Shown here: piece by piece, positions 12,783 to 50,593 of the stretch
How positions within the stretch are numbered: position 1 is the first letter of the stretch
How the letters are laid out: each line of letters opens with the position of its first letter
DNA from: an uncultured Mycoplasmatota bacterium
GTDB lineage: Bacteria; Bacillota_I; Bacilli_A; RF39; UBA660
Assembly (NCBI GenBank): GCA_949287595.1
Contig: CASEGV010000001.1
Location: 220,873-284,872, forward strand
DNA: 64,000 nucleotides
Direction of reading: 5' to 3'
Program-made: the position numbers and the translations under genes
Notes under the pieces: generated by a model
The model's input: only the letters and a program-made list of their open reading frames with translations
Databases searched by the model: none
Told to the model about the DNA's origin: nothing

Positions 12783-13172
12783 ATGGAAACAGATGAAACA
12801 ATGAATGTATTTATTAGACATAAGTGGAAATCTTATCCTATTCCAGAACATAAGAAGAAAGAAGGAATATTAAAATTTTTTCAAAAGAAATTTAATCATT
12901 ATGATATCAGTTTGAATAGTAAATTTAATGACGAGTTTTATATTAATGCATGGTTTAGAGATCTATCTAAAGCAGAGGGTTTCGAGAATCTTAGAGACTT
13001 ACCTTCTCCTAAGTGGTATTTTGATGTACAATTTAATACTATGGAAGATAGAACTATAAATATCACTACTGTATCTTGGAAACCTACAGAAGGGCAAACA
13101 CCTGATAATTTTATAAATGAAGTAGAAAATTATTTTATAAAACTATATAAATTTTTATATTGCAATGAGTAA
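12783..13172 (+). CDS. hypothetical protein
   Basis: 129 aa ORF after promoter motif at 12755. Confidence 0.7.
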   Translation: METDETMNVFIRHKWKSYPIPEHKKKEGILKFFQKKFNHYDISLNSKFNDEFYINAWFRDLSKAEGFENLRDLPSPKWYFDVQFNTMEDRTINITTVSWKPTEGQTPDNFINEVENYFIKLYKFLYCNE

Positions 13173-13419
13173 TAAAAATAAATCGTATTATTCGAGTAGA
13201 AAAATAAAAATTTCTATAGAATCTCCGTTAATTGGAGAAGTTATAATTAAGATATGGAGAAAGAAAGGAGAATATTATTTATTGACTATTTCTAATACTT
13301 CAGATGAGCTTTTTGAAGATTATGAAACTACTCTTAAAATCTTAACAAAATTAAGATGTAGATCAGCTAAGAAATGGTTTATAAAAGAGTTTAATAAAAA
13401 AAAAGATCTTAAAGTATGA
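13165..13419 (+). CDS. hypothetical protein
   Basis: 84 aa ORF overlapping neighbours. Confidence 0.6.
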   Translation: MSNKNKSYYSSRKIKISIESPLIGEVIIKIWRKKGEYYLLTISNTSDELFEDYETTLKILTKLRCRSAKKWFIKEFNKKKDLKV

Positions 13420-13766
13420 TTAAAAGTAAAATTATGATAAGACTAGCAAGATTTTTTAAGTCTAAAGATCAGTTTAGTGGATCATCCATGTGTTTTAGAT
13501 CTAAGTATGGATCTTCTGCAAAAAATTATCAACAGATTTTAGAAGATAGAATAAAATTAATAAAAACTCAAATTATAAATAAAACTGATATATCTAGAGA
13601 TGAGAGATTATTAGTTTTATCTATTCCACATGAAGAGGAGAAACTTTATGAAGATATAAAAAAATATTTTTCGGATAAGGGATTTATTACTTTTTATGCA
13701 GATAAAGAAAAGATAAAAGAGCTCAAGGAAAGAAAGTATTTATTCATTTCTTGGGATATTAATTAA
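13416..13766 (+). CDS. hypothetical protein
   Basis: 116 aa ORF. Confidence 0.7.
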   Translation: MIKSKIMIRLARFFKSKDQFSGSSMCFRSKYGSSAKNYQQILEDRIKLIKTQIINKTDISRDERLLVLSIPHEEEKLYEDIKKYFSDKGFITFYADKEKIKELKERKYLFISWDIN

Positions 13767-13787
13767 CAATTATAAATTTAAAATTTT

Positions 13788-16337
13788 ATGAAAAATTACA
13801 AAGGATTAAATGATTCAGAAGTATTAACTTTTAGAAGTAAGTTTGGAGAAAATGTGTTAACACCACCGAAGAAAACTCCTTGGTGGAAACTGTATTTAGA
13901 AAAGTTTAAAGATCCTGTTATCGTTATCTTATTGATAGCCGCCGTAATATCTATTATAGTAGGTATTGTAAATGGAGATTATATTGAACCAATAGGTATT
14001 ATAATTGCAATTCTCTTAGCTACCGGAGTAGGATTTTACATGGAGTTCAGTGCTAAAAAGAAATTTGATATTCTAAATCAAGTTTCAGATACTGAACCAG
14101 TTAAAGTTATAAGGAATGAAGGAAAAGTAATGGAGGTTAAAAAGACTGAATTAGTAGTAGGAGATATAGTAATTCTTAATTCTGGAGATGAAGTTCCAGC
14201 TGATATAGAGTTATTAGAAGCTACTAATATTAAAGTTGATGAAGCATCTTTAACTGGAGAATCTGTTCCAGTAGGTAAAAGAGCTAAAGAGGACGGTGAA
14301 AAATATGAAGGATCAGGTTTTCCAGAGTATCTCGTACTTAAATCAACTAATATTACTGAGGGAAATGCAGTCGGTGTGGTAGTAAATGTTGGAGATAGTA
14401 CAGAAATTGGAAAAACAACAAGACAAGCAATGGAGGAAACTAATGTAGAAACTCCATTAAATAAACAGTTAAATGGACTAGCTAAGTTAATAAATAAATC
14501 TGCATTTACTGTTGCTGGATTATTGTTGCTATTCTTAAATATACATCATTTTGGGTTTACTGATTTTGATAGTTCTCTAATTGGAATAGTATTATCAGAA
14601 ATTAAATTCTTTATGATGGCTATAGTTTTAGTTATATGCGCTGTTCCAGAAGGATTGCCGTTGGCTAGTACTTTAAGTTTGGCTTTTTCAATGAAAGCAA
14701 TGGCTAAAGATAATAATTTAGTTAAAAAGCTTCATGCATCTGAAACTATTGGGGCAATTAATATAATTTGTACTGATAAAACAGGAACACTTACCCAAAA
14801 TAAGATGAAAGTAGTAGATGAATCTATTAAGAGTTATTATAAAGTAATAGTTAATGGAGCAATAAATTCTACTGCTAATCTTAGTGTAAATGAGTATGAT
14901 AAAGCACGAATCAAAGTAATTGGTAATCCTACTGAAGGAGCAATATTAATGTGGATTGATGAATGCGATGCACAAAAGATATATGATGAAGTAGTAGAAC
15001 CAGAACAAGTTGGATATATCGGAATACGAGATACTGTAAAAGTAGTAGAACAAGTACCATTTAATAGTACTAATAAATATATGTCTACTAAAGGTTCAGA
15101 TGGGGTTTTGTATGTTAAAGGAGCTCCAGAAGTAGTATCTAAGTTATGTAAGGATGATTCATATCTAGAAGAAGTAGCCAAACAACAAGAGAGAGGAAGA
15201 AGAGCTATAAGTTTTGCTAGTGGTTCTGATATGGAACATTTAGAGTATGATGGAACTTTATTTATTGAAGATCCTATTAGATCTGATGTTCCAGAAGCAG
15301 TTAAGAAAGCTTATGAAGCAGGAGTAGATGTGATGATGATGACTGGTGATAATATTAAAACCGCATCAGAAATTGCAAGACAAGCTGGTTTCAAAGATAT
15401 CTATGCAATTGAGGCTAAAGATTGGTCAGGTATAAAAAATGATTGGAAAAATAATATTGGAGGATCTACTAGAGATTATCCAAATGTTATCGCAAGATGT
15501 AAACCTGATGATAAACTAAGAATTTTGAAAGATTTACAAAAACATAATAAAGTATGTGCAATGACGGGTGACGGGGTTAATGATAGCCCATCCTTGAATC
15601 ATGCTAATGTGGGAATTGCTATGGGATCAGGAACTTCTGTAGCAAAAGAAGCAGCCGATATAGTACTCTTAGATGATGCATTCCCTAGTATTTTGAAAGG
15701 ATTAGTATGGGGTAGATCATTGTATAAGAATATTCAGAATTTCTTAGTATTCCAGTTAATCATTAATGTAGCTGTATGTTTAACTGCATTGTTTGGTCCT
15801 ATTCTTGGAATTGATATGCCATTTAGTGTTACTCAAATGTTATGGGTTAATATTGTAATGGATACATTGGCTAGTTGTGCAATTTCTTCTGAACCTGCAG
15901 ATGAAAATGTATTGAAAGATAAGCCAAGAAAATTTGATGCATTTATCATTACTAAACCAATGTATAAAACTATTTTAGGAATGGGAATATTTGTATTTTT
16001 ACTATTATCTACTATAGTTTTTGATATTGCTCACGGTTCTAAAGTATTTGGACTAGATTTAACAGAACTATTTGCAGTATTTATGGTAATTAATTGGTGG
16101 AACTTATTTAATATCAGAGTATTTGGAAAGAATAGAAGTATATTCCATAACCTCTTTGATAATAAAATGTTCATAATAAGTGCTATTATTATGTTATTAG
16201 GAACTATTCTTATAGTTCAGTTTGGTGGAGAAGTATTTAATACAAGACCACTTTCTATGTCAGAATGGCTTATAATAATAGGAGTAACTTCACCAATAGT
16301 TTTAATAAGAGAATTATGGTGGAAGATTAGTAAATAA
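13788..16337 (+). CDS. P-type ATPase, type II (calcium-translocating PMCA-like)
   Basis: DEASLTGES, AVPEGLPL, phosphorylation site CTDKTGTLT, KGAPE, TGDN, MTGDGVNDSPSL, QMLWVNIVMD; multiple TM helices. Confidence 0.93.
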   Translation: MKNYKGLNDSEVLTFRSKFGENVLTPPKKTPWWKLYLEKFKDPVIVILLIAAVISIIVGIVNGDYIEPIGIIIAILLATGVGFYMEFSAKKKFDILNQVSDTEPVKVIRNEGKVMEVKKTELVVGDIVILNSGDEVPADIELLEATNIKVDEASLTGESVPVGKRAKEDGEKYEGSGFPEYLVLKSTNITEGNAVGVVVNVGDSTEIGKTTRQAMEETNVETPLNKQLNGLAKLINKSAFTVAGLLLLFLNIHHFGFTDFDSSLIGIVLSEIKFFMMAIVLVICAVPEGLPLASTLSLAFSMKAMAKDNNLVKKLHASETIGAINIICTDKTGTLTQNKMKVVDESIKSYYKVIVNGAINSTANLSVNEYDKARIKVIGNPTEGAILMWIDECDAQKIYDEVVEPEQVGYIGIRDTVKVVEQVPFNSTNKYMSTKGSDGVLYVKGAPEVVSKLCKDDSYLEEVAKQQERGRRAISFASGSDMEHLEYDGTLFIEDPIRSDVPEAVKKAYEAGVDVMMMTGDNIKTASEIARQAGFKDIYAIEAKDWSGIKNDWKNNIGGSTRDYPNVIARCKPDDKLRILKDLQKHNKVCAMTGDGVNDSPSLNHANVGIAMGSGTSVAKEAADIVLLDDAFPSILKGLVWGRSLYKNIQNFLVFQLIINVAVCLTALFGPILGIDMPFSVTQMLWVNIVMDTLASCAISSEPADENVLKDKPRKFDAFIITKPMYKTILGMGIFVFLLLSTIVFDIAHGSKVFGLDLTELFAVFMVINWWNLFNIRVFGKNRSIFHNLFDNKMFIISAIIMLLGTILIVQFGGEVFNTRPLSMSEWLIIIGVTSPIVLIRELWWKISK

Positions 16338-16398
16338 AAATAAAAAAGATAAAAGAGATTAATTATAATTAATCTCTTTTATTTTATTAATAACTATT

Positions 16399-16776
16399 AT
16401 GGAAAGATTAGACTCTAATAAAAAACCTTATGGAATAATATGTAATGTTAGATTATGGAAATATATAAAACCTAAATTACAAGAGTGGAAATATTATTCA
16501 ATAAAAGGATTTAATGAAGATTGGAGTAAACCAGCAATTTTACTAATTCGAACAATAGGTGGAGTTGGACTATATAATAAGTTTAATCTACCTACTAATT
16601 TCGATTTTGAAATAAAATTAATACATAATGTTGATGAATTTCTTACTAAAGCAGCAGAATTAACTGGATTTAATTATGAATTATATGATAAAAATGAAAA
16701 TATGGTGAAATTAACAGTAGAACAAATAGAAGATATATTGGATATTCCACATGGAAATTTACTAATTATTGAATAA
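16399..16776 (+). CDS. hypothetical protein, tandem paralog 1 of 3
   Basis: shared LWKYIKP.L.EW.Y, DEFLTKAAEL.G, LTVEQIEDILDIPHG. Confidence 0.8.
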   Translation: MERLDSNKKPYGIICNVRLWKYIKPKLQEWKYYSIKGFNEDWSKPAILLIRTIGGVGLYNKFNLPTNFDFEIKLIHNVDEFLTKAAELTGFNYELYDKNENMVKLTVEQIEDILDIPHGNLLIIE

Positions 16777-37246: not shown

Positions 37247-40200
37247 ATGAATAGAAGATTGGTATTAATTGATCAAAATGAAACCCCAGACTATACTAAA
37301 TATTATAGTGGGGAAGTTGGAAATGAAGTGTATACATTACAATATCTTGAATCTTTACTTAAAAGTGATTCTAGTAGGATATTAGGTGTTGGGGAAGGTG
37401 ATGCAGTATTATTAGTTGGAGCAGAACCATTTAAATTTTTGCAAGGATATTATCATTTTGGAGTACGTTCTGAAAATTATTTTGACTGTTCTAAATTAAG
37501 AAGATTATCTATTGAAGGCGGAGCTTTTGTAAAGTGTGTTACTGAATACCCTAGTCAAGAAGAGATTAATGATTTTATGTCAATAGACTTTACTACACCT
37601 AGAGACTTTTCTTGGTTTAAACAAAAAGTATTACATACTTTTGAAGAAGCTTGGAAATTTTTAGATTGGATAGAATCATTACCAAAAGAAGAACCACTTG
37701 GATTTGACTATGAAGCATCTGGTATGCCACTAGATAAAGTATTTTATTTATCTGGAGCATCTATATGTAATATAAATTACGGTGGTTTTATATCATTTAC
37801 AGATATTAGAAGAACCTCATCTGAATATGCTTATAGAGGATTACTAGAAAGGCTTGGAAAAATCCTTCTAGAAAGAATGGATTACATATGGGTTTATAAT
37901 ATGCAATATGAATTCCAAGTATCTCATAGAGAGTTAGGAGTAGATTTATATAATCTTTGCGATGCTAGTGTAGTAAATGTTCTTGACGGAAATCATTTAA
38001 AGAAATATTCATTAAAATGGACTGGTCAAAAAGTTCTTGATGGAGTAAGAACTTGGGACGTAGATTTTGATAGATTATCTGATTTAATGGATTCAATGTT
38101 TTATGAAACGGTTGGAAAATTAAAGAAAGATAAGAAAAAAGTATTTAAGGTAACCTTAGATAATTACCAAGATACTAATGAATGGAAAATTATTTGCTCA
38201 ATTTATCCAGATTACGTAGGAGAATTTGAAAGATTAATTAATGATTATTGGGGATTTCCATTTATGTGTGTACCCTCAGATATATTAGGATATTACTGTA
38301 ATTTGGATGCTTTCTACACTTTAATGATTTTTAAAGAAAGAGAGAATACATATAGTAAAGATGCATTTAGAACATTCTTAGATAATATAAGATTAGGAGC
38401 TAGACTACACTCGAGTGGCCTTTATATAGATGAACCTTATAGATTAAAATATCAAGAAGAATGTCATAAAATGATGGCTTGGGGTATAACTTACTGTGCT
38501 ACTGCAAGATGTAAGATTAAAATGGATAAACACTCCAAATTAATGGCATCAACAAAAAAGATGAGTCCTTTTATAAAACTTTTAATTGAAAAAGAGTGCT
38601 TCTTTAATGGTAATTCTCAAGAAATAGTAAAAAATATTTTACTAAATCACGTAGATATATTAGATGCTTATAGTACTGGAGTAAACGAAGGACTTTTATT
38701 AATGAATTTTGGAGAACAATTTGCTGAAGGTTTTCTAAATATACTAACTGATTCAATGAAAGAGATTAAGTTTAAAGGAAAAATTGATTCGGGAGTAAAG
38801 AATAAAAGAAAATTATTAGGAGTAGTAGCAGCAAAGTTAGAATCATTTATTGGATTAGACAAAATAAAGCTAAATAATAAACATATTGAATTAGAAAAAT
38901 TCTATTATTATAAGAATGCTTATGATGAACTGATTAATATTAGTAATACTCAATTAAATGATATTAATAATATACCACAAAATATAAAAGCATTCGGAAA
39001 GGTTTTTAATTTACTTGATTATTCTAAATTCGTTAGTGATAATTATTTTAAATGTAAAAGTCCACAAGAAAATGATAAAATAGTTACTGAAATGTTTGAG
39101 CTTTACAAATCTCAGACAGCATTTATAGCAGCATTAGGAGAAAGTATTCAGCAACTACCAATTGAAAAGAAAGAAGATTTTTATACTAATTTAGGAATAT
39201 TCGAAATACAAGATGCTTTTAGTCACTTTATGTCAGAATGGAAAAATTGGTATGAACATTCTTCAACAGAAGAAGCTGAATATATAAGCAACTTATATCC
39301 AAGTAAAATGTTCCATCTAGCTATGGATTTTTGGAAGAAAGGAATAGAAGTAGAAACAGCTAAAGATGTATATCCAGTTAAGGACGTGTGGGCAGATTTT
39401 TTTGGATTTAATACACAAGCGCAGTTCTTTGATTATTTTAAAGATCAATATGAATCGTATTGTAAGCCATTCTCAGACTCTGATTTAACTGGAGATGATT
39501 TCTTCTTAATGAGAAAATTTTCATTAAATTATTTATTATATAAAAAATATGCAAAAGTATTAAGTACTTATATAGATGGTATGTTTAAAGCTAATAATAA
39601 ATGGGTAATAGAAGGAGAAGATCATATACCTTTAAGAGAAGCTGATCCATCTGAACCTGGAGCTATAGAAAAATGTTTTGCTCACTTTGAAGTAAATACT
39701 AAAAGTAGTAAAAGATGGTCTTCCGGATTCCATACTATTATCTCACATTCTGATCTTAAGGATTGTTTATCAACTCCATATCATTATGATAGATTTGGAA
39801 ATAAAGTAATAGAAGACTTCTTCGAAACATATTTTGACATTAGCAGTGCAGAGGTAAATTATAATTTTGCCGTTTAAGGTAGTAATATCTTAAATAATAA
39901 GTGGGCAAATTAACGGTAAAAGGTGAGATTCCTAATACCGTGCTAACTATAAGAATTACGAATAGGTCTTGTAGTAGTGTAACGCATAGAAGGTGAATAA
40001 ATATAATCCTTCCACGAGTGTCCACCAACCTATACAAGGTTGAAAATATATGCTGGACTAAGAAGAATATGAATTCTTAGAATTATAGGATAAAAAGCCT
40101 ATAAGATAACAAACGAAAAGCTGCAGGATTTGCTAGTGGAGACCCTGATTTAATAAATAAATTTCAAATTGGGGAAGATATATATATATACTCAGCTAAA

Positions 40201-42408
40201 TTATATTTAGGAGAAGAATTTGATAGACTTGAAGATCATGTAAAGAAAATGTGGAGAAAGCGATTTAAAACAATTTTCTTAGGAGTACTTTATGGTCTTG
40301 GAAAGAAGAGTTTAGCAGAAAGATTAAACTGTTCTGAAGCAGAAGCAGAAGAAATTATACAAGGACTTTACAAGAGTTTCCCAAAATTGAGAGAATATGT
40401 AGCAATTCAACAAAAATATCCACTTGAACATAGTGGATATATTAATACAATGCTGGGAGATAAGTTAAAAGTATCCGAATATGATTTACTATTAAAATCT
40501 ACTTCAGAACGTGAGAAAAAAGGATTAATAGCCAGAATTCAAAGGTTGGGCGTAAATCTACCTATCCAAGGTGGGACAAGTTCAATCATGGCTAGTGGAT
40601 TTATGAATAATATTAGAGAATCTATAAAAAATGGTTGGAAGAATATACTACAACCAATTATTGTAGTGCATTAACTTTATATAGTGCACTTAAAACCTAC
40701 TTAATTGCTGGAAACACTTGTTAGGTTATCAATACGTCGGAACTTGTCAATCCTATCGTAAAAATTTGATAAATAGAGTCAATCAGCAGTAAATTGCAAA
40801 TCAGGAATAAATAATTAATTTAAAATAATTAAAAATGGAAAGTTATGAGTTTAAATTATTAATAAATGGAATAGAAAATTTACCTAAAGAGCTTTTAAAT
40901 TATAATTCCGTATTATATAGAATTTATGATAAAGCAACTAATAAGAACTACATAGGAACAGCAAAATATGGAATTCCTGGAAGATTATATGATAGATCTT
41001 ATGGACATGTAGTTTATTTACGTAATTTGAATAAAACAAAGTGTCGCGGAATGTATTTTGAAATGTCTAAAAGAATAGAAGATTTTTCTCTTATTATAGA
41101 GAAAGTTACTGAATCAAAAAATTATGAAGAAATTTTATTGGATGAAACTGAATTGATAATAAAGTATGATTCAGTACTGTCAGGGTATAATGTTAGTATT
41201 GATGGAAAACCAAGATGGAAACAAGGAACAATCTGTGTAAATGATGGAAAATATGACTTATATATTTATCCTCAAGATATAGATAGATATATAAATAATG
41301 GATTTTCATTAGGATCTTGTAAACATGATTTTTTAAAAGGATTTATATGGATTAATAATGGATCTATATCTAAAATGATAGATCCGGATGATTTTGAATT
41401 ATTTAAATTAGACGGATTTGTGAAAGGATCTTTAGTATCTCCAAATAAGGGAAAGATTTGGGTAAATGATGGAAAGAATTCAAAATTAATTAATAAAGAT
41501 AAGATTAATACTAAAGAATTTGAAAATTATAAATTTTATGGAAGACTAGAAGGTCCTCGAAAACCCAGAGGAAAGTATAATTCTTCAAAGAAGAGAAAAA
41601 TAGTAAACAATGGGGAGAAAGAGCTTAGAGTATTAGAGTCTGAATTAGAATCTTTTTTAAAAGATAATCCATCCTATATATTAGGGCGATTGAAAGGAAA
41701 AATTTTAGTAAGTAATAAAGAAACTAATATATCTAAGTTTATTAGTAAAGATAAATTAAATGAATATTTATCTAAAGGATTTACAATCGGGAGAACAAAG
41801 AAATGACAGACTTTGTTTAGTAAATGCAATTTATTCAACGACTATCGAAAACATATCTTATTTGAAAGAAAAAGTGAGTAGAGTAGAACATAAGCTATTG
41901 ATGTTCGAAACAGTAGGCACCTTATGAATGGGTGAAGATATAGTCTGGTCTACCTAGAGATAGATAGCAGAAATATTTAAAAATATTTCGGCATAAATGT
42001 AGCGAATTTATGTGAACATTAACGGATTCTAATACTAATTATGTTCCAGTTAGTAAAATATTTGATATTAGAAAATTTTATGATATAAACTATACTGATT
42101 ATTGTTCATCCTTTGGACCAAAAATTAAATTATTATTTGATTTGTTATCTGGAGTTTCTTACGAAAAAGCATGTCCTATGAAACAAATTGATGAAAATAC
42201 TATTGAATATAAAGGAAGTGCTTATTCATTATTAGCTATTTATGATAGAATAATGAATTGTAAAGATTTAAAAGTGGAGTGTAATGTTTCTAGAGATTCA
42301 TTAATTCCAAAATGGATAACAAATCCTATAGATAGATTTATAAGAGAGAATGGTACTAGTATAGTTAAAGATATAAGTAAGTATACAATTCAATTTAAAA
42401 AATTATAA
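37247..42408 (+). CDS. polA: DNA polymerase family A, spliced (exons 37247-39855, 40116-40671, 42025-42408; 1182 aa)
   Basis: 3'-5' exo GFDYEASG, YNMQYE, YCNLDA; joined motif A YFDISSAEV|KAAGFASGD, motif B RKRFKTIFLGVLYG, NLPIQG, joined motif C IVVH|DS. Confidence 0.9.
39856..40115 (+). mobile_element. group I intron (260 nt, ORF-less) in polA motif A
   Basis: P1 ggt|aaa...tttgcc with U.G; core aacggtaaaa...aataccgtg, gtgtaacgcata, gaaaatatatgct; ends aaacG; splicing restores frame. Confidence 0.85.
40672..42024 (+). mobile_element. group I intron (1353 nt) in polA motif C with homing endonuclease
   Basis: P1 gtgcat|...gtgcac with U.G; aattgctggaaa, aatcagcag, ttcaacgactat, gaagatatagtct; ends aacG before GAT TCT. 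Confidence 0.88.
40835..41806 (+). CDS. intron-encoded GIY-YIG-like homing endonuclease with C-terminal repeats
   Basis: VLYRIYDKATNKNYIGTA...E...GYN; about five repeats beginning CVNDG/WINNG/WVNDG/IVNNG/LVSN and ending GF..G. Confidence 0.8.
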   Translation: MESYEFKLLINGIENLPKELLNYNSVLYRIYDKATNKNYIGTAKYGIPGRLYDRSYGHVVYLRNLNKTKCRGMYFEMSKRIEDFSLIIEKVTESKNYEEILLDETELIIKYDSVLSGYNVSIDGKPRWKQGTICVNDGKYDLYIYPQDIDRYINNGFSLGSCKHDFLKGFIWINNGSISKMIDPDDFELFKLDGFVKGSLVSPNKGKIWVNDGKNSKLINKDKINTKEFENYKFYGRLEGPRKPRGKYNSSKKRKIVNNGEKELRVLESELESFLKDNPSYILGRLKGKILVSNKETNISKFISKDKLNEYLSKGFTIGRTKK

Positions 42409-42413
42409 AAATA

Positions 42414-42443
42414 AATAAGAGGGAAATATTTCCCTCTTATTTT
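42414..42443. terminator. bidirectional terminator shared by polA and cassette A
   Basis: aaataagagggaaa/tttccctcttattt. Confidence 0.8.
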
Positions 42444-42751
42444 TATCCTTTAAATTCTGTAGGTCTTCCATTATATGTACTAGGAGATATTATTACATCA
42501 AAAAAAGTTAAACTACCATAATCATTTCCGACTATTATATCTGAAGAATTCATTTCTCCCTCATTTATTATTGTTGAAAAACGTTCTTCGTAGTAAGAAG
42601 ATTGTCTATTATATCTATATTTTCCATTTATAGAAAAATTCGTAGGAGCTATTTCATTACAATGTATATATACATGATTTATTCCATTTACTGTTTTACC
42701 TGATGAGTAAAACTCTATTGAAGATAATCCCTCTTGTTTTAAAGGAACATT
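42443..42751 (-). other. silent C-terminal cassette A (102 aa, no start codon)
   Basis: open frame from site S1: NVPLKQEGLSSIEFYSSGKTVNGINHVYIHC...PSTYNGRPTEFKG*. Confidence 0.85.
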
Positions 42752-42753
42752 TA
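42739..42753 (-). repeat. putative recombination site S1
   Basis: minus strand taaatgttcctttaa. Confidence 0.85.
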
Positions 42754-42781
42754 GTTTATATTAGAATTTTAATATAAATAT

Positions 42782-42796
42782 AAAACGTTCCTTTAA
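42782..42796 (+). repeat. putative recombination site S2
   Basis: aaaacgttcctttaa. Confidence 0.85.
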
Positions 42797-43164
42797 CTCA
42801 GGAAGGTAGAGAACTCTACAGAGTTGTAACTTATCAACTTACCTCAATCTCACCATCTACTGCAGAAATTGAATGCTGTGGAAATAGTCTGCATGTAGGA
42901 GATGATCCATTAATGACATTAGTAGATGATGGAGGATTAATTGATATAACTGTATTTGGTCAAAAAAATGGATGGAGTTTTTCTATTAAATTCACTGGAA
43001 TAGATAAAATTTACAAAGATACAGGAGATAACTGGACTGGATATTTTAATTTTAGTAACGGAGTATTCTCAGTTAGTGAAGGAAATAATGGACATTTAAC
43101 AGGTAATGTAACTGATGAAAGTAGTGGTAAAGTATTTAATATAACAATTGAAGTAATTGGATAA
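42784..43164 (+). other. silent C-terminal cassette B (126 aa, no start codon)
   Basis: NVPLTQEGRELYRVVTYQLTS...; in frame with and extends track ORF 42913..43164. Confidence 0.85.
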
Positions 43165-43176
43165 ATTATTAAATAA

Positions 43177-43204
43177 AAAGAGGTGCTTTAAAGCACCTCT
43201 TTTT
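43177..43204. terminator. bidirectional terminator after cassette B
   Basis: aaagaggtgct/agcacctcttt. Confidence 0.8.
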
Positions 43205-43208
43205 ATTT

Positions 43209-44102
43209 TTAGTAATATAAACTTAATAATTGTCCTAAATCTAGATAATCTATTCCTAAGTTTTTTGAAGTTAATAAATCTCTATCACTTTGTCCATATA
43301 ATCCAGAATTTAATCCTATATGAATTATATCATCTCTATCATAAGTTAAACCTTTTAATACTGAACTTATAACAGTATCTTTAGTTTGTCCTAATTGACT
43401 TTGTATAATTATTTGACAATTAGTATATGGAACTCTTAAATATTCTGATAAAGCACATATTATGTAATCTAATAATACCCTCCAAGAATCTGAACCATTA
43501 CTAGAAGATAGTAAGCTACCGGGAATAATAGCATAAATTTTTTCAGGATTAAAACATGCTAATTTATCCCATACTTCAAATCTTAATCTTACGTCATAAA
43601 TTCCTCTAGGTAATAATCCTGGTTTTCCATTACTCTGAAAAGTTTCTATTAGACAATCTAAAACATCACAAAATATGACTTTTTTTTGTCTATTAATTTC
43701 TCTCTTTTCATTACTTCCCCAAGAATTATTTTGTGGGGATGAATATCCTCCCCAAGAAGAACCAGAACTAGTTCCCCAAGATGGAGAGGGATTTCTTTGC
43801 CAAGGAAATTGTTGCTGTGATGTTGTATTTCCCCAACTACTTCCTGGTGTTGTAGTATTTCCCCAAGAAGATTGTCCATTATTAGAAGTTCCCCAATTAT
43901 TTACTGGTTGCCCAAAAGGAGTTTGTTGCATAATTTTTTTATTAAATTTATCCTGTTCATTAAATACTTCATTTACTTTTTCTTCTTCATCCCCCTCATC
44001 AAAATCGGCTGGTTCTTCATCATCTTCTTCATCTATTGGAGGATCATCATAATTAATTTCAGAATCAATATAGTCTCTTTTTAAAATTTCTTCATCTCTC
44101 AT
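43209..44102 (-). CDS. protein with acidic N-terminus, WG-repeat low-complexity region and degenerate HAD (PNK 3'-phosphatase-like) domain
   Basis: NNWG, SSWG x3, PSWG, NSWG; VIFCDVLDCLI and IG...SDRD..TSKNLGIDY. Confidence 0.65.
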   Translation of the reverse strand: MRDEEILKRDYIDSEINYDDPPIDEEDDEEPADFDEGDEEEKVNEVFNEQDKFNKKIMQQTPFGQPVNNWGTSNNGQSSWGNTTTPGSSWGNTTSQQQFPWQRNPSPSWGTSSGSSWGGYSSPQNNSWGSNEKREINRQKKVIFCDVLDCLIETFQSNGKPGLLPRGIYDVRLRFEVWDKLACFNPEKIYAIIPGSLLSSSNGSDSWRVLLDYIICALSEYLRVPYTNCQIIIQSQLGQTKDTVISSVLKGLTYDRDDIIHIGLNSGLYGQSDRDLLTSKNLGIDYLDLGQLLSLYY

Positions 44103-44560
44103 TTTGACTTATTAATAAATAATTCTCTAAAAATACAAAGTTTATTATTTAATGAGCAATTCGAGTGATCTTTATTATAAAGTTCACACATACTAGGACA
44201 AGCTTTATCGATTAATTCTGATAATCTATATAATGGATTATTATTTTCTATACTCTCGAATATATTTTTATCAGCAAATAATCTCTCTAATTCTCCTTCA
44301 ATAGGGACCATATTACATAAATCTGTACTATTTCCACTATTATCTACACTCAAGTCAGAACAATAATCAGTGAAACAATAATCTTTATTATCTATGTATC
44401 TAGGATCTGGGATATATCTGCAAATTTTACTATAATAGCAATCATCACATACTATCTTTCCACCTCCTTCGACGATTATAGGTTTAAATATTAAAGTCTC
44501 ATCTCTTAAGCTTCCATCTTTTTCTTTTAATGTAACTTTTATAGTCTTAAATTTACTCAT
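44099..44560 (-). CDS. Cys-rich hypothetical protein
   Basis: CDDCYYSKIC, CFTDYC, CPSMC...CSLNNKLC. Confidence 0.72.
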   Translation of the reverse strand: MSKFKTIKVTLKEKDGSLRDETLIFKPIIVEGGGKIVCDDCYYSKICRYIPDPRYIDNKDYCFTDYCSDLSVDNSGNSTDLCNMVPIEGELERLFADKNIFESIENNNPLYRLSELIDKACPSMCELYNKDHSNCSLNNKLCIFRELFINKSK

Positions 44561-44642
44561 AATTAGTTAATTTTATAAATTAATGAAGCATTATTTGCTT
44601 CATTAATAAGGAATTAAGTCCATTTAAGACGTTAGTAATAAA

Positions 44643-44978
44643 TTATTTAGGTAACATTACTTTTATATTATACGTATACGTATCATCTCCAGACGTAGAA
44701 GTACTTGAGCTAGGATATTTCATTTCTCTTCCCATAGATCCAAAAGCATAATCATACTCTATATTAACTGTTCCTGAAGTTTTTCCGGGAGGGATTGTTA
44801 TAGAATAGTCTCCATTACCTGTCATCTGAAAAAATCCATCTGGTGTTGTATTACCAGTAGTAAATCTACCTTCTACATAAATAGTAGCTAAATTTGCTGG
44901 ATCACTTGTATAACGAGATTCATTTATAGTTACTGTACATGTAGGTTTCGGTTTTCCATACTGAGTTAAAGGAACGTT
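44643..44978 (-). other. silent C-terminal cassette C (111 aa, no start codon)
   Basis: NVPLTQYGKPKPTCTVTINESRY...; in frame with and extends track ORF 44643..44825. Confidence 0.85.
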
Positions 44979-44980
44979 TA
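44966..44980 (-). repeat. putative recombination site S3
   Basis: minus strand taaacgttcctttaa. Confidence 0.85.
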
Positions 44981-45017
44981 ATTTTGCTCTTATATTAACT
45001 TTAAACTCTAATAATTG

Positions 45018-45066
45018 AGAACAATAATAACTTAGAAAAATTATGTAAATTAGTTATTATTGTTCT
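45018..45066. repeat. 15-bp perfect inverted repeat upstream of adhesin gene
   Basis: agaacaataataact / agttattattgttct followed by T-run. Confidence 0.7.
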
Positions 45067-45102
45067 TTTTATTTCATATTATAACTTATAATAATTAAAA
45101 TT

Positions 45103-46875
45103 ATGGCAGAATTAAAAATAGCAACTAAAGCATTTTGTAATACTCTTCTTGCAGGATCTTTCTCAGGAGATACTACACAATGCCCTACGAAAAGTGAAAT
45201 ATTAAGTGCTGGACTTAGTATAAAATCTGGAACATATGAAGATAATCAATTAGTTCCAGAAGATCATATTCAATATCTATGGTGGGAATATACATTTTCT
45301 GTATCTCCTACTGCAGCATCTCAAATTCCAGCTACTGGGGGGAATAGGCAATTTACTGTAACTTCTTATAAGGTTCAATATTCAAAATCTACTGCTGGAG
45401 ATAAAGTAGAAGTTACAAGACAAAATGTAGGATATACATCCTCTAATTCAGGTAGTGGTTCTTGGAACTCTGGGAATAATACAATAACTTATAGTGAAAA
45501 TAAAAGTACTAAAGGGTTATCTGGTATAGTAACTTGGACTCAAAATGAATCTAGTAAAAAAGTAACAGCTACTCACTCTCAAGCACCTGGAACTATAACT
45601 TATAGTGGAATAACTATAAAGTCTGCTACTGCTAATGTTGCTCCTGCAAAAGGTGGAACAATAAATTCTGGATCTGTTACTTATGAACAAACTTGGGGAT
45701 GGAATGGAGCAACTACTGGAGGAGGAACTATTACTTCAGGATTATCAGTATCATGGACATCAGTATCTATTCCATCATTAGGTACCACTACAACTAATTC
45801 TACTACAGATACTGGAAAAGATATAACAGTAACTGTTAGCGGTAATGGAAAAACTGCATCAAAAGCAGTAAATGTTAATCAAGAAGCTAATACCTATACG
45901 GATAGTTGGGGAAGTTGGAGCTATACAATTAGTAATATTACTGTAGGTGGAGGAAGTGGAGATATTCCTTATAGTGGTGGTACTAGAACAGTTAGTGCTT
46001 CATGTACTGGAAGTAGAGGTGGAACTAGAACTTGGAAATCTGGAAGTACACAATCTATTAGTGATAGTAGTAGTCCATCCGTTAGCTGGAGTATTTCAGG
46101 TTCAGGATTTTCTTTGAATGGAACAACAGTTACTGCTAGTGCAAATAATGGGGGAAGAAGATGTTGTACTGTAACTGCTTCATATCCAGGGGCTACTTCA
46201 AAAACTGCACAGATATGTCAAGCCGAAGGAGCTATTTCGTACGGAAATTATAGATTTTCTACTAGTCCAACTTCTATTAACTTTTCTAGTAGCGGTGGAA
46301 GTAATAGCTTTACAGTAACTTCAGTTGCAACTAAATATATAGGATCAACTTCACAGGGTGATGTTTCTATATCTTGGAGTGGATCTAAGGGAGGTACGAA
46401 TTCATCATCATTTAGTGTATCTCCATTAAGTGGTGGAAATGGAACAAGAGTTAATGTTAGTATTGGCTCAAATTCTGATACTAGCAGTAAAAGTGCAACA
46501 GTTAACTTAGTTCAAGAAGGTTCTGGCACTAGCATAAACGTTCCTTTAAAACAAGATGCTCCAGTATATAATGTTTATTTTAATTTAACTTGGGGAGGTA
46601 GTATGTCTAATACATATGGCGCTCAATTTGATATTAATAGTTCTAATTTTTACGATGGAAATAGAAAACACATATCAGATTCAGGACCTACTCCAGGAGC
46701 GACAGAAAAGATTACTATTAGAGTAATTAATACAAATTTATTCTCATGGAGTACATCTGGAGCTTGGTATTCATATCATAGAGATCCTAGTAATAAAGTA
46801 GATACTTATATATCTCCTAATAGTGGAACTTGTTCTTCTGGGGATAATATAGATATTTATTTTAATGCAATTTAA
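45103..46875 (+). CDS. BACON/Ig-repeat adhesin or tail-fibre-like protein with exchangeable C-terminus
   Basis: S/T/G-rich beta repeats (FSVSPT..IPATGGNRQFTVTS; FSTSPTSINFSSSGGSNSFTVTS...SPLSG...N...SATV...INVPLKQ) ending in Q as in BACON domains; site S4 at codon 479. Confidence 0.8.
   Translation: MAELKIATKAFCNTLLAGSFSGDTTQCPTKSEILSAGLSIKSGTYEDNQLVPEDHIQYLWWEYTFSVSPTAASQIPATGGNRQFTVTSYKVQYSKSTAGDKVEVTRQNVGYTSSNSGSGSWNSGNNTITYSENKSTKGLSGIVTWTQNESSKKVTATHSQAPGTITYSGITIKSATANVAPAKGGTINSGSVTYEQTWGWNGATTGGGTITSGLSVSWTSVSIPSLGTTTTNSTTDTGKDITVTVSGNGKTASKAVNVNQEANTYTDSWGSWSYTISNITVGGGSGDIPYSGGTRTVSASCTGSRGGTRTWKSGSTQSISDSSSPSVSWSISGSGFSLNGTTVTASANNGGRRCCTVTASYPGATSKTAQICQAEGAISYGNYRFSTSPTSINFSSSGGSNSFTVTSVATKYIGSTSQGDVSISWSGSKGGTNSSSFSVSPLSGGNGTRVNVSIGSNSDTSSKSATVNLVQEGSGTSINVPLKQDAPVYNVYFNLTWGGSMSNTYGAQFDINSSNFYDGNRKHISDSGPTPGATEKITIRVINTNLFSWSTSGAWYSYHRDPSNKVDTYISPNSGTCSSGDNIDIYFNAI
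46535..46549 (+). repeat. putative recombination site S4 (inside expressed gene)
   Basis: taaacgttcctttaa. Confidence 0.85.
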
Positions 46876-46880
46876 TAAAA

Positions 46881-46915
46881 AAAATAGACTATCATTGGAC
46901 ATGATAGTCTATTTT
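46881..46915 (+). terminator. intrinsic terminator after adhesin gene
   Basis: aaatagactatcat/atgatagtctattt. Confidence 0.8.
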
Positions 46916-46981
46916 GCTTTTCTTACACCTTTAATATCTTATTATTGAAATTAATAATAATAATTAAGTATTTAATCAATT

Positions 46982-48022
46982 ATGTTAGAGACAAATAAAT
47001 TATTGTATTCTTTATCTGATGTATCAATAATTCCAGCTGAAACAGTTACTATTGAGAGTAGATCTGAGTGCATTCCTTTTACAAATAATATTGAAAGAAC
47101 AGATTCTAATTACTATCCTATAGTAGTAGCTCCAATGGCATCAGTTATTTCAGAGAATAATTATAAGATCTTTAATAATAATAAAGTATCATGTATTATT
47201 CCTAGAAATATAGAATTAGAAGTTAGATTAAAATTATGTAGTGATGTATTTTGTGCTTTTTCTCTTAAAGAAATAGAAAATAATTTTATTACAAATAAAT
47301 TTAATGTAATTAATAAAATCTATGTACTAATCGACATTGCTAATGGACATTTACAAAAACAGCTAACTATAGGAAGTAAATTAAAACAGATATATGGAAG
47401 TAATGTAGTATTGATGGGAGGAAATATTGCTAATCCTGACACTTATTTATACTATAATTACTCTGGATTTGATTATGTTAGAGTTGGTATTGGAGGAGGA
47501 TCAGGATGTTTAACATCTACTCAAACTAGTATTCATTACCCAATGGCATCTTTATTAGATGATATTACAAAAATAAGATATAATATAGATATTAACACTA
47601 GCACTAAAGTAATTGCTGATGGAGGTATTGGAAATTATTCTGATGCTATAAAATGTTTGGCTTTAGGTGCAGATTATGTTATGATGGGGAAAGTATTTGC
47701 AAAAACTGTAGAAGCATGTGGAGATACCTATGTAGGATTAGATGGTAAAGTATATAGACACTATTATGGTATGTCAACTAAGGAAGCTCAAGCAAAAATT
47801 TTAGGAAAATCATTAGAAAACATCAAAGAAAAATTAAAAACTTCTGAAGGAAAGACAGAAGAATTAGAAGTAGAATATACTATATCTGGATGGATTGATA
47901 ATTTTAATTCATACCTTAGATCAGCTATGTCTTATACTAATTCAAGAAGTCTTAGTGAATTTAAAAACTCTAGATGTAATATTATCTCTTTATCATCTAG
48001 TAATTTTATTAATAATAAATAA
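46982..48022 (+). CDS. GMP reductase / IMP dehydrogenase family (no CBS domains)
   Basis: IDIANGH, GGNIA, VRVGIGGGSGCLT, IADGGI...KCLALGADYVMMG, YYGMST, LRSAMSY. Confidence 0.88.
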   Translation: MLETNKLLYSLSDVSIIPAETVTIESRSECIPFTNNIERTDSNYYPIVVAPMASVISENNYKIFNNNKVSCIIPRNIELEVRLKLCSDVFCAFSLKEIENNFITNKFNVINKIYVLIDIANGHLQKQLTIGSKLKQIYGSNVVLMGGNIANPDTYLYYNYSGFDYVRVGIGGGSGCLTSTQTSIHYPMASLLDDITKIRYNIDINTSTKVIADGGIGNYSDAIKCLALGADYVMMGKVFAKTVEACGDTYVGLDGKVYRHYYGMSTKEAQAKILGKSLENIKEKLKTSEGKTEELEVEYTISGWIDNFNSYLRSAMSYTNSRSLSEFKNSRCNIISLSSSNFINNK

Positions 48023-48031
48023 ATTTAACTT

Positions 48032-48847
48032 ATGGCTAGAAAGAAAGCTATTAAATCAGATCTTGAAGAAGAGTTGCAAGAAATTAGAAATGAAAAGAAT
48101 AATATCTTAAATTTCAAGATGAATTTTAAATGCAGAACTAAACATCAAAAAGAATTTCTAAAGTCAATATATGAAAAAGAAATTACTTTAGTTTATGGAG
48201 CTGCCGGAACTGGAAAATCTTACGTATCTCTTTATGCAGCATTAGATTTACTTAAACACAGTTCAGAAAATGGATATGAGAAAATAGTACTAATTTATCC
48301 AGTAGCAACAAACCCTGATGAAAATATTGGATTTTTAAAAGGAACATTAGATGAAAAACTTTCCGTTTATAAAGAAGCGGACTTTTATACTATGGAAAAA
48401 ATAATAAATGCTTCTGGAAAAAATGGAAAAGAAGTAGTCCAGAAATTAGTTGAAGCTGGAAAAATAGAAGTAAAGTCTGCAACTTTTCTAAGAGGATCTA
48501 CTATAGATAATTCAATAGTAGTAATATCTGAAGCTCAAAATTTCTCAAAAGACACATTTCTTAAAATATTAACAAGAATAGGAACTAATTCCAAATATAT
48601 TTTTAATTCAGATCACCAACAATTAGATAATGGAAGTATCAAATCTAAAAAAAATGTTAGTGGATTACAATACGCTAAAGAAAAATTATTTGATTTAGAT
48701 GAAATAGGAATAATTGAGTTTGGATTAGAAGATATTGTAAGAAATGATATTATTGTAAAAGTACTAAAACGATGGATACCTGAAGTATATGGTAATATAG
48801 ATGAAAAAGATCTGGATAAAAAAATATCAGAAGAAAAATTAGAATAA
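48032..48847 (+). CDS. phoH: PhoH family ATPase
   Basis: GAAGTGKS, IGFLKG, FLRGSTI, ISEAQN, LTRIG, DIVRN. Confidence 0.9.
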   Translation: MARKKAIKSDLEEELQEIRNEKNNILNFKMNFKCRTKHQKEFLKSIYEKEITLVYGAAGTGKSYVSLYAALDLLKHSSENGYEKIVLIYPVATNPDENIGFLKGTLDEKLSVYKEADFYTMEKIINASGKNGKEVVQKLVEAGKIEVKSATFLRGSTIDNSIVVISEAQNFSKDTFLKILTRIGTNSKYIFNSDHQQLDNGSIKSKKNVSGLQYAKEKLFDLDEIGIIEFGLEDIVRNDIIVKVLKRWIPEVYGNIDEKDLDKKISEEKLE

Positions 48848-48878
48848 AAAATAGAGGCTTAACGCCTCTATTTTTTTA
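48848..48878. terminator. bidirectional terminator between phoH and cassette D
   Basis: aaaatagaggc/gcctctatttt. Confidence 0.8.
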
Positions 48879-48940
48879 GTAAAATAATTATTTCCCCAAT
48901 ATTTAAATAAATATGTATATAGTATACAATATACAATAGA

Positions 48941-49243
48941 TTAAACATAATATACTGTTACATAAGAATGAGTCTCTTCATTTTCTCTTATTACAACAGA
49001 GCTTATTCCAGAAAAATTTCCAAAACTTAATGATTTATCTACTGTCCATGTTCCTGTTGATAGAGTATATTCGATTATTTTAAGAGTATTTCCCATATAA
49101 CTAATATGCTGATTTACTCCTCCAGATTCTTTCACAAGAGTTATATCTGCAGATATACTTTGTCCTGGTGGGACACCAGATGGACTCCAATGTACTACTA
49201 AGGTTCCAGTAATAGTTTTTCCATACTGATTTAAAGGAACATT
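48941..49243 (-). other. silent C-terminal cassette D (100 aa, no ATG at head)
   Basis: NVPLNQYGKTITGTLVVHWSPSGVPPGQ...; in frame with and extends track ORF 48941..49135. Confidence 0.85.
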
Positions 49244-49245
49244 TA
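49231..49245 (-). repeat. putative recombination site S5
   Basis: minus strand taaatgttcctttaa. Confidence 0.85.
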
Positions 49246-49310
49246 AAATCGTCTAAAATTCTTATAATTGTAATATACTTAAATAAATTAACATAGAAAA
49301 AATTAAAAAA

Positions 49311-50462
49311 ATGAGTGAATTAATTTCTTCAAAGTGGGTAGACGAATTAGGAATATACTATCCTATAGATGGTAATACTCAACTTCATCAAACTCCTGGA
49401 AATGGTATATTTGAATTATATCAATCTCAGGGTCAAGATAAACGTATAGGATTAAAGAAAATTGCAAATAAATTTGAGTTTAATTTTAAGCTCTATGATT
49501 TAGATTGTAGTGATTTTTTAAACTTAGTAAAAAATACGTGGGAATCTGATATATTTGTAGAAAATAATAGGAATCTAGGGATTATTTTAAATGGAATAAA
49601 AGGAACCGGAAAAACCTTAAGTTCTAAAATACTTTGTAATAAAATTGGATTACCAGTAATAATGGTTACAAAAATTATTGATGGTATGATAAGTTTTATA
49701 CAATCACTAGAATTTGAATGTATTATATTAATTGATGAAGCAGAAAAAACATTTAAAAAAGGAGAAGATGATGAGCTTCTAGTAAAATTAATTGATGGAG
49801 TATATAATAGATCTAGAAAGCTATACATACTCACTACAAATAAATTGGATATCAATGAAAATCTTTTAGGAAGACCTGGAAGAATAAGATACATTAAAGA
49901 ATATGGAAATTTGTCCAATAAAGCAGTTAAAGAATTTTTAGATGATAACCTTAAAGTACCTAACAAAAGAGATGCTATCTTAGAGATAGTAGATCTTCTT
50001 GAAATATCTACTATAGATATTCTTAGAAATATAGTAGAAGAAGTAAATATTCATGGAGATATTTCAGAAGATAGTTATCTTAATGTTCCAAAATCTAAAT
50101 ATATATTTGATATACTTAGATTTGAAATAACTAATTCTTCTCAAGTAGAGGAAATAAAAAATACTCTAAAAGGTGTAAAAGATATTAAAGAATGGTTATC
50201 TTTACCATCTGGAAAAGGAGAAGATAGAACTAATGAAGATGAATTATATGATAAATACAGATTCTTCGAAGATACTTTAAAGAGTAAATATTCTACTTTA
50301 TGGAAAAACTCTGAAACATCTTTGGGAATTTTACTAGATGAAATCGATGAAGAAGGATTTGTAAGTGTAAAGGGTATAGGATATTACAGTGATACTGAAT
50401 ATCTAATAAAAATAATAGGACAAAGAAATAATCCATCTTTATATAGAGGAGATTTGATTTGA
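49311..50462 (+). CDS. AAA family ATPase
   Basis: GIKGTGKT, ILIDEAEK, ILTTN, RPGRIRY. Confidence 0.88.
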   Translation: MSELISSKWVDELGIYYPIDGNTQLHQTPGNGIFELYQSQGQDKRIGLKKIANKFEFNFKLYDLDCSDFLNLVKNTWESDIFVENNRNLGIILNGIKGTGKTLSSKILCNKIGLPVIMVTKIIDGMISFIQSLEFECIILIDEAEKTFKKGEDDELLVKLIDGVYNRSRKLYILTTNKLDINENLLGRPGRIRYIKEYGNLSNKAVKEFLDDNLKVPNKRDAILEIVDLLEISTIDILRNIVEEVNIHGDISEDSYLNVPKSKYIFDILRFEITNSSQVEEIKNTLKGVKDIKEWLSLPSGKGEDRTNEDELYDKYRFFEDTLKSKYSTLWKNSETSLGILLDEIDEEGFVSVKGIGYYSDTEYLIKIIGQRNNPSLYRGDLI

Positions 50463-50593
50463 TGTTTAATTGGTGGAGTTTTTGAAGACAAAGAGTAATT
50501 TAGTCGTGAGACTAGGTTACTCTTATTTTCTTTTATAAAACATCTATTAAGTTTTACTAAAACTCTTATAAATGAAACTTAATATACATTAAT

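Follow-up and report, generated by a model that had tools for sequence, protein, structure and literature searches.

A probable five-site inversion switch with an invertible expression unit in a fibre-like gene of a probable Jug-like jumbo phage

Introduction

Can the constant part of a variable gene be carried, together with its upstream region, onto the alternative 3' ends that are stored on both sides of it? This question is raised by a locus in a stretch of 64,000 nucleotides (nt), here called the window, that represents positions 220,873 to 284,872 of contig CASEGV010000001.1 in an assembly (GCA_949287595.1) assigned to an uncultured Mycoplasmatota bacterium. The locus codes for a fibre-like protein and contains five copies of AAAYGTTCCTTTAA in alternating orientation (S1 to S5, spanning 42739-49244). 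It is probably a multi-inversion switch of the C-terminal tip of a fibre or adhesin, residing on a jumbo phage similar to those named "Jug", with an invertase of the Mpi type as the most likely enzyme.

Five crossover sites and five cassettes

The core of the sites, AAACGTTCCTTTAA, has six matches with at most two mismatches in the window versus 1.35 expected, and none of 100 shuffled sequences reached this number. Five of the six are S1 to S5, clustered within 6.5 kb, and among the eight core matches with at most one mismatch in the whole 2.1-Mb assembly five are again these sites. Each of them, read from the second base, encodes N-V-P-L in frame, and in this frame an open stretch of 100 to 126 codons follows (cassettes A, B, C, E and D behind S1 to S5, respectively; Table 1). 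When every position of the window is considered on both strands, only 9.6% are followed by at least 100 open codons, and after shuffling 0.007%. Beyond the common NVPL-x-Q the five cassettes show no pairwise similarity, and a Pfam scan of all five matched no family. A long open frame on the upstream side is found at S4 alone (484 codons, 478 of them from ATG 45103); at the other four sites it comprises 0-25 codons. Thus the locus has the features of a shufflon, with three sites in minus and two in plus orientation and with each site opening an in-frame 3' cassette.

From left to right the locus is composed of the left flank, A-S1, a spacer, S2-B, two open reading frames (ORFs), C-S3, the constant unit (segment K), S4-E, an IMPDH-domain gene, a PhoH-like gene, D-S5 and the right flank. 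Cassette E is the one currently expressed. The common arrangement, in which the constant part is fixed outside of the invertible DNA and the recombinase gene is its neighbour, was not found here. S3 is located 123 nt 5' of the start codon and is inverted relative to S4. As S3 lies on the promoter side of the constant part, the unit of presumed promoter and constant part is itself an invertible segment; and because one of the two sites that bound it lies within the coding sequence, a flip alters the C-terminus of the protein and does not turn the locus on or off. Scans of ORFs of the window and of the related locus L015 (see below) detected no recombinase family.

To enumerate the reachable arrangements, inversions between sites of opposite orientation were followed breadth-first; this gave 64, 32 with the constant segment in forward and 32 with it in reversed orientation. 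An earlier sequence-only reading of this DNA had proposed that the upstream region and the constant part of 478 codons lie between S3(-) and S4(+), and coordinates and orientations agree with this. It had also deduced that single inversions lead from S3xS4 to cassette C, from S1xS4 to A and from S4xS5 to D, and that B needs two steps; the enumeration reproduces all these routes.

Exchange at the sites in other samples and strains

Contigs of four public sequencing runs (X1, X3, X5 and X6) were aligned to positions 41500-50500 of the window. X1 is the possible source sample, X3 another sample of the same study, and X6 belongs to a different study; the joints are joints of assembled contigs and not of reads. 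In X6 one contig (record 27) fuses the reverse strand 42778..42732, i.e. spacer and S1, to cassette E from position 46557 onwards, with 17 letters shared at the joint. This is the product of an exchange between S1 and S4. Another contig of the same run (record 26) shows C, S3 and the constant part contiguously. Just two of the 64 configurations hold both the spacer-E and the C-S3-K junction, and in both K is reversed, provided that X6 has the same five sites. Geometry and exchange products together support the sequence-only reading, by which the constant region is itself an invertible segment with cassettes on both sides.

Contigs of X3 end or begin at S1, S3, S4 and S5. There S3 is contiguous with the start of the constant part (record 13), and a further contig (record 14) opens with a spacer-like stretch of 16 letters (14 identical to the window) before the site and cassette E. 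In record 11 the end of the constant part is followed by 248 unmatched letters and then by the 3' end of B, and a loose end of 15 letters behind the constant part reads QYGK, as in the tail of the homologous protein P0004. The constant end therefore has at least two partners in this single sample. Letters adjoining S3 in X3 read DKKSIICYLS and correspond to the tail type that is expressed in protein P0009. X5 shows three contigs of 42-50 nt at S4, which are a hint only since this run covers little of the stretch at 90% likeness. An assembly artefact was considered and rejected, the repeats (14-22 nt) being shorter than the word length of the assembler, which we take to be 31. Both orientations of K were not seen within one population; the differences between isoforms lie between samples and genomes.

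Some joints are located outside of the sites. In X6 position 42411 is joined to 42796 on opposite strands, and in X1 there are low-depth joints with sides under 30 at 42418/46947 and 42411/43931, the former of which would delete the whole switch (42419-46946) in a minor variant. These may be other strains or artefacts.

Variation of the tail is also seen in proteins. In the ten closest database homologues of the constant part (54-92% identity) NVPL is kept at the junction in nine. Three of them (P0002, P0003 and P0006) have E-type tails with 91-101 identical residues of 110-112, in P0004 the constant part is combined with a tail of the D type that shares 76 of 100 residues, and the tails of the remaining five are of other types.

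Conservation in distant relatives

A profile search with the fibre-like protein detected seven loci on viral contigs of 14.5-401 kb in IMG/VR, in which the constant part is 45-48% identical. All seven contain the identical 14-bp core in 8-16 copies each (at most two mismatches allowed, loci of about 10-18 kb), and nearly all copies open a cassette of 98-225 codons. Exact matches to a 19-nt form of the site number 145 and are distributed over 47 contigs of IMG/VR. The expressed gene is located in every one of the seven loci between a (-) site 3.4-3.8 kb upstream and a (+) site at the end of the gene, so a bracketed and movable expression unit is the rule in this clade. The seven expressed genes carry seven different cassettes, and the cassettes attached to the upstream (-) site differ in all seven as well. 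One cassette, starting with SQDGKTVSTYIVQF, has four different upstream partners across five loci.

The genomes of the relatives differ by permutation and inversion of segments. Four placements of the DNA-polymerase block relative to the expressed gene were found in five loci, namely to its left in L011 (same strand) and in L014 (opposite strand), and to its right in L010 and L013 (opposite strand) and in L015 (same strand). Wherever the block is complete (four of four loci, Table 1) it is bracketed by outward-facing sites, and it is seen in both orientations. This means that segments holding core genes flip too in the relatives. In L015 the polymerase is a single ORF of 1183 amino acids, and a similar bracketed segment of this locus carries a NADAR-domain gene and a radical-SAM-like gene, the latter a weak match below the Pfam cut-off.

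The relatives show a second, nested tier of inversion that has no counterpart in the window. A segment of about 0.9 kb with promoter and the first ~270 codons lies between inverted repeats of 49 nt that lack the Mpi-type motif, and it is flipped in L010 if compared to L013 and L014. By the flip, one of two "bodies" without start codon, each of about 480-510 codons, is connected to the N-terminus; the second body is interrupted in five of the seven loci.

A metagenome contig with 38% guanine plus cytosine (GC), L060, encodes a homologue of the constant part with 510 amino acids and 43% identity. The protein ends with ...GENGYIDKIEI, lacks NVPL, and no Mpi-type sites are present within 8 kb, so it represents a non-switching form of the fibre. 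Searches of GenBank phages by near-identity and by protein revealed no close relative, exact-pattern scans for the junction at the constant end gave no match in IMG/VR and in the species genomes, and a profile scan of the species genomes detected no relative.

The point of strand exchange

The four bases GTTC (core positions 5-8) are invariant in all 56 sites compared. At positions 1-4 the variants (ATAT, AACT, AATT) keep to particular upstream flanks and are found there with changing cassettes, and at position 9 a variant (G or T) reappears together with one cassette when the flanks differ. Positions 1-4 hence follow the upstream flank and position 9 follows the cassette, which places the exchange within GTTC. 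A short dyad, TAAA(C/G)G-TT-C(C/G)TTTA, has these bases in its middle, and its symmetry extends over only 6-7 bp on each side of TT. An exchange in GTTC is, in our interpretation, consistent with the 2-bp stagger of a serine recombinase. A tyrosine recombinase similar to Rci or Rin was considered and rejected, since none is present on the contig and the exchange window of at most 4 bp would be too short for the 6-8-bp overlap that we expect for such an enzyme.

Similar motifs are known from Bacteroides. The inverted repeat GTTCGTTTAA flanks capsule promoters of Bacteroides intestinalis (PVR7-11) and overlaps with the ARACGTTCGTN repeats of those promoters of B. fragilis that are controlled by the serine invertase Mpi (PMC8375218). 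Compared with the motifs as given there, the core of the window matches the former at 9 of 10 and the latter at 10 of 11 positions, and the G-variant AAACGTTCGTTTAA, found in relatives at five of the 56 sites, matches both completely.

The candidate invertase

The contig of 371 kb contains one detected member of the Resolvase family, an ORF of 199 amino acids that is located 179 kb away from the sites and shows a Resolvase domain followed by a C-terminal helix-turn-helix. Phage_integrase and IS110-type families have no match on this contig. The ORF matches NF009949 ("master DNA invertase Mpi family serine-type recombinase") with an E-value of 1.5e-58 over positions 1-197 of 203, and the next-best family follows with only 1e-5, i.e. 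more than 50 orders of magnitude behind. Among solved structures the Tn3 and gamma-delta resolvases (E about 1e-11) fit slightly better than Gin (1e-9). Neither close kinship with Hin, Gin, Cin, Pin and Min nor the 26-bp sites with 12-bp half-sites of this group were found here.

The invertase is 80-99% identical in 43 jumbo viral contigs, and its nearest homologues outside of jumbo-size contigs are about 48-55% identical and mostly located on short contigs. The only named homologue among the matches listed is annotated as Mpi family. All 15 site-bearing IMG/VR contigs of at least 300 kb carry the invertase; conversely, 15 of 19 contigs with the invertase carry the sites. Mpi is described to act globally in trans (PMC6109161), and the same paper states that reports of phage genomes with a trans-supplied invertase were lacking at that time. 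Judged from these sequence relationships, the acting enzyme is most likely the phage's own Mpi-family serine invertase of 199 amino acids, which would act in trans.

The replicon and the fibre-like protein

The first and the last 80 nt of the contig (370,971 nt) are identical, which indicates a circular replicon of 370.9 kb. Its GC content is 27%, versus about 29-30% in most other contigs of the bin, and it holds the only Mpi-family match of the bin. It is probably a phage genome that was binned with an unrelated bacterium. The runs that hold the element come from the gut of chicken and other birds. Phages of the Jug kind are described with genomes of about 360-400 kb, those of group Beta being smaller, with a GC content of about 27%, occurrence in bird and mammal gut and a DNA polymerase split by endonuclease inserts; these phages are predicted to infect Bacteroides or Phocaeicola and are reported to be abundant in human and animal guts (PMC12363816). 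Size, GC content, host animals and a split polymerase match the description of group Beta, and the element is most likely a jumbo gut phage of the Jug kind.

The AlphaFold model of the expressed protein has a mean predicted local distance difference test (pLDDT) score of 78.1. Residues 60-490 form a string of beta domains resembling immunoglobulin (Ig) or BACON domains, and from about residue 490 onwards cassette E is modelled with low confidence (means of 39-67 in blocks of ten residues). The best matches among viral models are BACON-domain or "cellulase"-labelled proteins of gut Myoviridae, Siphoviridae and a crAss-like virus (E 4e-30 to 1e-19), and fold matches in the PDB are generic strings of Ig domains with template modelling scores of at most 0.2. 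Over its first 160 residues the protein is similar to the beginning of a BACON-domain protein that belongs to the very large ORFs adjoining the endolysin of a crAss-like phage, and the first 15 residues are invariant in 12 homologues. This fits with a conserved anchor and a variable distal tip.

Evaluation of possible explanations

In the mechanism that we propose, every site would divide an upstream end from a start-less cassette, and the 478-codon constant part's 3' end would be the single productive upstream end. The constant unit would turn onto the cassettes stored on either side, other invertible segments would carry ordinary genes, strands would be exchanged in the invariant GTTC, and the distant invertase of the phage would provide the activity in trans. 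Several points weigh against this proposal. With 197.9 bits the invertase stays below the NCBI equivalog cut-off of 272, no crossover site is present within 3 kb of its gene in the 44 loci examined, and its co-occurrence with the sites reflects shared ancestry within one clade and is not independent evidence. Long contigs of X1 (records 1 and 3) traverse all five sites in the arrangement of the window, and none of the joints listed at the sites comes from this run; as far as a rate of switching may be inferred from contigs, it is rare or absent in X1. Mixtures of strains could produce the same contig breaks, the evidence being assembled contigs. A search for longer proteins bearing cassette C found none, which is weak evidence, A and B having not been searched this way. 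The putative role as fibre or adhesin derives from likeness of a modelled fold only. Finally, the Pfam families of terminase, sheath and baseplate were found neither on the contig nor in the assembly, so that the presumed phage nature is deduced from the listing of relatives in IMG/VR, from PHROG matches and from the fit to the description of Jug phages.

The weak points of the enzyme assignment lead to the idea that the same switch is driven by a Mpi-type master invertase of the host, the phage mimicking capsule-promoter sites of the host and using its own invertase for another target. A single base separates the site from the published repeats of the host (PMC8375218), and the phage enzyme is encoded far away, without a site nearby and with a score below the Mpi cut-off. 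Against this stands its 80-99% identity across the clade that carries the sites, and no other target repeat of the phage enzyme was found; furthermore, Mpi acts in trans (PMC6109161), so distance is no argument against the phage enzyme. We regard a switch operated by the host as rather unlikely. The uniform arrangement in the unbroken contigs of X1 would also suit a fossil or nearly frozen shufflon, in which strains differ because of old events or homologous exchanges and switching has come to an end. Yet the cores and cassette frames at all five sites are intact, as is the invertase; strains that share more than 95% identity with the window deviate from it precisely at the sites, X3 alone holds at least two junctions of the constant end, and the confinement of exchange points to 4 bp in 56 sites argues against homologous recombination. 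This makes a frozen state improbable. Hardly credible is the classical layout, in which only S4xS5 is used, S3 as well as S1 and S2 have arisen by chance or have decayed, and the constant part always keeps its orientation. It would explain why, apart from E, database proteins show just one cassette of the window, D, joined to the constant part, but the spacer-E junction of X6 involves S1, cassettes A, B and C are intact (102-126 codons), and the upstream (-) site is kept in all seven relatives with cassettes that are all different. The five-site switch with an invertible expression unit and the phage's own invertase as candidate enzyme remains our favoured explanation.

Comparison with known inversion systems

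The capsule invertons of Bacteroides are among the closest known systems. In operation the locus resembles a shufflon, but its components correspond to those of the Bacteroides promoter invertons. Both have a small serine recombinase assigned to the same NCBIfam family and a nearly identical crossover motif, the enzyme gene is far from the sites, and a segment with a promoter, presumed in our case, lies between inverted sites. In contrast with those invertons, one site of the promoter segment is found here inside the coding sequence, the C-terminus changes rather than the on/off state of the locus, five sites interlock as a shufflon, the replicon is phage-like and the enzyme falls below the equivalog cut-off. 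Segment K is in effect a promoter inverton of the Mpi type whose second repeat lies within the coding sequence and which is interlocked with three further sites.

In the systems of Mu, P1 and p15B the constant part lies outside of the invertible DNA and the invertase gene is adjacent. Here, the constant part and its upstream region are invertible, cassettes occur on both sides, unrelated cargo genes are included, and the enzyme is encoded at a distance; by sequence this enzyme does not stand nearer to Gin than it does to the resolvases of Tn3 and gamma-delta. What Min (p15B), Gin (Mu) and Cin (P1) have in common with our locus is a phage-borne serine invertase system that places alternative C-terminal fibre parts on a constant N-terminal part, and Min has several crossover sites (PMC6109161). 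Similarly, several dissimilar C-terminal cassettes delimited by short sites are acquired by the receptor-binding protein of gut phages in the Rin shufflon of Bifidobacterium prophages (PMC6109161) and by the tail fibre in the BV01-like shufflon of Phocaeicola phages (PMC13596623). Rin is a tyrosine recombinase, however, and in both shufflons the recombinase flanks a compact array of cassettes downstream of a fixed constant part.

The sequence-only reading had called the layout of the locus unusual. This stands with regard to Min, Rin and the BV01-type shufflons but not in general, as the expression site of the vsa locus of Mycoplasma pulmonis moves likewise: site-specific inversions bring promoter and N-terminal coding DNA onto silent genes (PMC4534519). 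The vsa genes differ in encoding a family of bacterial surface lipoproteins, with unrelated recombinase and sites. A promoter-bearing invertible segment between oppositely oriented alternative genes is also known from the sap locus of Campylobacter fetus, where unlike here the promoter alone moves, the genes are complete and recombination is homologous. No published description of the switch reported here was found in the main texts of the literature, and the texts of the Jug preprint and of the jumbo-phage papers examined do not mention invertible DNA.

It is conceivable, and suggested here tentatively, that the phage took over the capsule-switching invertase of Bacteroidales together with its site and extended both into a genome-scale fibre shufflon with an inverton of promoter plus constant part. 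Since the sites are nearly identical, the enzymes of host and phage may act on each other's targets. If so, capsule switching of the host and tip switching of the phage would be mechanically coupled, and in infected cells even a resetting of capsule promoters by the phage enzyme could occur. For Jug-type phages that face phase-variable capsules of Bacteroidales the locus offers a concrete and testable mechanism. The switch has five tips in the window, its counterparts in relatives have at least a dozen, and it apparently uses the invertase family and the site that also serve the capsule variation of the host. The locus further suggests that programmed inversion in viruses can move an expression unit rather than the cassettes and can carry segments of several kilobases with core genes, in the relatives the gene of the DNA polymerase, which bears on assembly and comparison of jumbo-phage genomes of such kind.

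Other features of the locus

The coordinates of all features are compiled in Table 1. Ten terminator-like sites were found versus 2.0 expected.

Table 1. Features of the inversion locus and of related loci. Positions refer to the window unless a contig or locus is named.
Feature	Position	Strand	Remarks
S1, crossover site	42739-42752	-	AAATGTTCCTTTAA; cassette A to the left, 30-nt spacer to the right
S2, crossover site	42783-42796	+	cassette B to the right
S3, crossover site	44966-44979	-	promoter side of the constant unit
S4, crossover site	46536-46549	+	inside the expressed gene, encodes N-V-P-L
S5, crossover site	49231-49244	-	fixed right flank beyond
Segment K, invertible expression unit	44980-46535	+	consists of 123 nt of upstream region (44980-45102) and of the constant part, 478 codons beginning with ATG 45103
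Cassette A	42443-42751	-	NVPLKQEGLSS..., 102 codons and stop, without own start codon
Cassette B	42784-43164	+	NVPLTQEGREL..., 126 codons and stop
Cassette C	44643-44978	-	NVPLTQYGKPK..., 111 codons and stop, on the 5' side of the constant unit
Cassette E	46537-46875	+	NVPLKQDAPVY..., 112 codons and stop, currently expressed
Cassette D	48941-49243	-	NVPLNQYGKTI..., 100 codons and stop
Spacer P	42753-42782	.	30 nt, non-coding; lies between S1 and S2, which face outward, and serves as an "empty slot" where two cassettes are parked
Segment Q, cargo	43209-44560	-	two ORFs, 297 and 153 amino acids, without Pfam or PHROG family
Segment R, cargo	46982-48022	+	IMPDH/GMP-reductase-domain protein, PF00478, E 2.3e-37
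Segment R, cargo	48032-48847	+	PhoH-like protein, PF02562, E 2.6e-46
Bidirectional terminator-like hairpin	42413-42442	.	behind cassette A and the last DNA-polymerase piece
Terminator-like hairpin	43171-43208	.	behind cassette B and the 297-amino-acid ORF
Bidirectional terminator-like hairpin	46881-46915	.	behind cassette E
Terminator-like hairpin	48846-48876	.	between the PhoH-like gene and cassette D
Family-A DNA polymerase, three pieces	37247-39877, 40249-40674, 42142-42408		whole range 37247-42408
ORF of 323 amino acids	40835-41806		PHROGs of unknown function; between second and third polymerase piece
Candidate invertase, 199 amino acids	contig 83761-84360		sites at contig 263611-270116
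Bracketed polymerase segment	L015 12942-16688		polymerase ORF 13045-16596
Bracketed polymerase segment	L010 10925-14673
Bracketed polymerase segment	L013 11227-14978
Bracketed polymerase segment	L014 1268-5014
Segment with NADAR-domain gene	L015 3364-4950
Inverted repeats of the nested tier	L013 7834-7882, 8807-8855		49 nt each
Loci compared for the nested flip	L010 6388-10213, L013 6475-10231, L014 6492-10300		flipped in L010
Homologue of the constant part	L060 8001-9533		510 amino acids
Site pair with shrunken cassettes	L012 1961-2026		cassettes of 23 and 27 codons
Outward-facing pairs, degenerate core	L014 5631-5715, L015 11121-11205, L015 12252-12338, L016 4575-4659

The fixed left flank of the locus ends in the last piece of the split DNA polymerase. 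The division of this gene into three pieces, with a further ORF between the second and the third, agrees with insertions of introns or endonucleases as described for Jug phages. Short pairs of outward-facing sites similar to spacer P are present in the relatives L014, L015 and L016. Such outward-facing pairs have degenerate cores (ATAT.. or AACT..), and at one site pair of L012 the two cassettes are shrunk to 23 and 27 codons.

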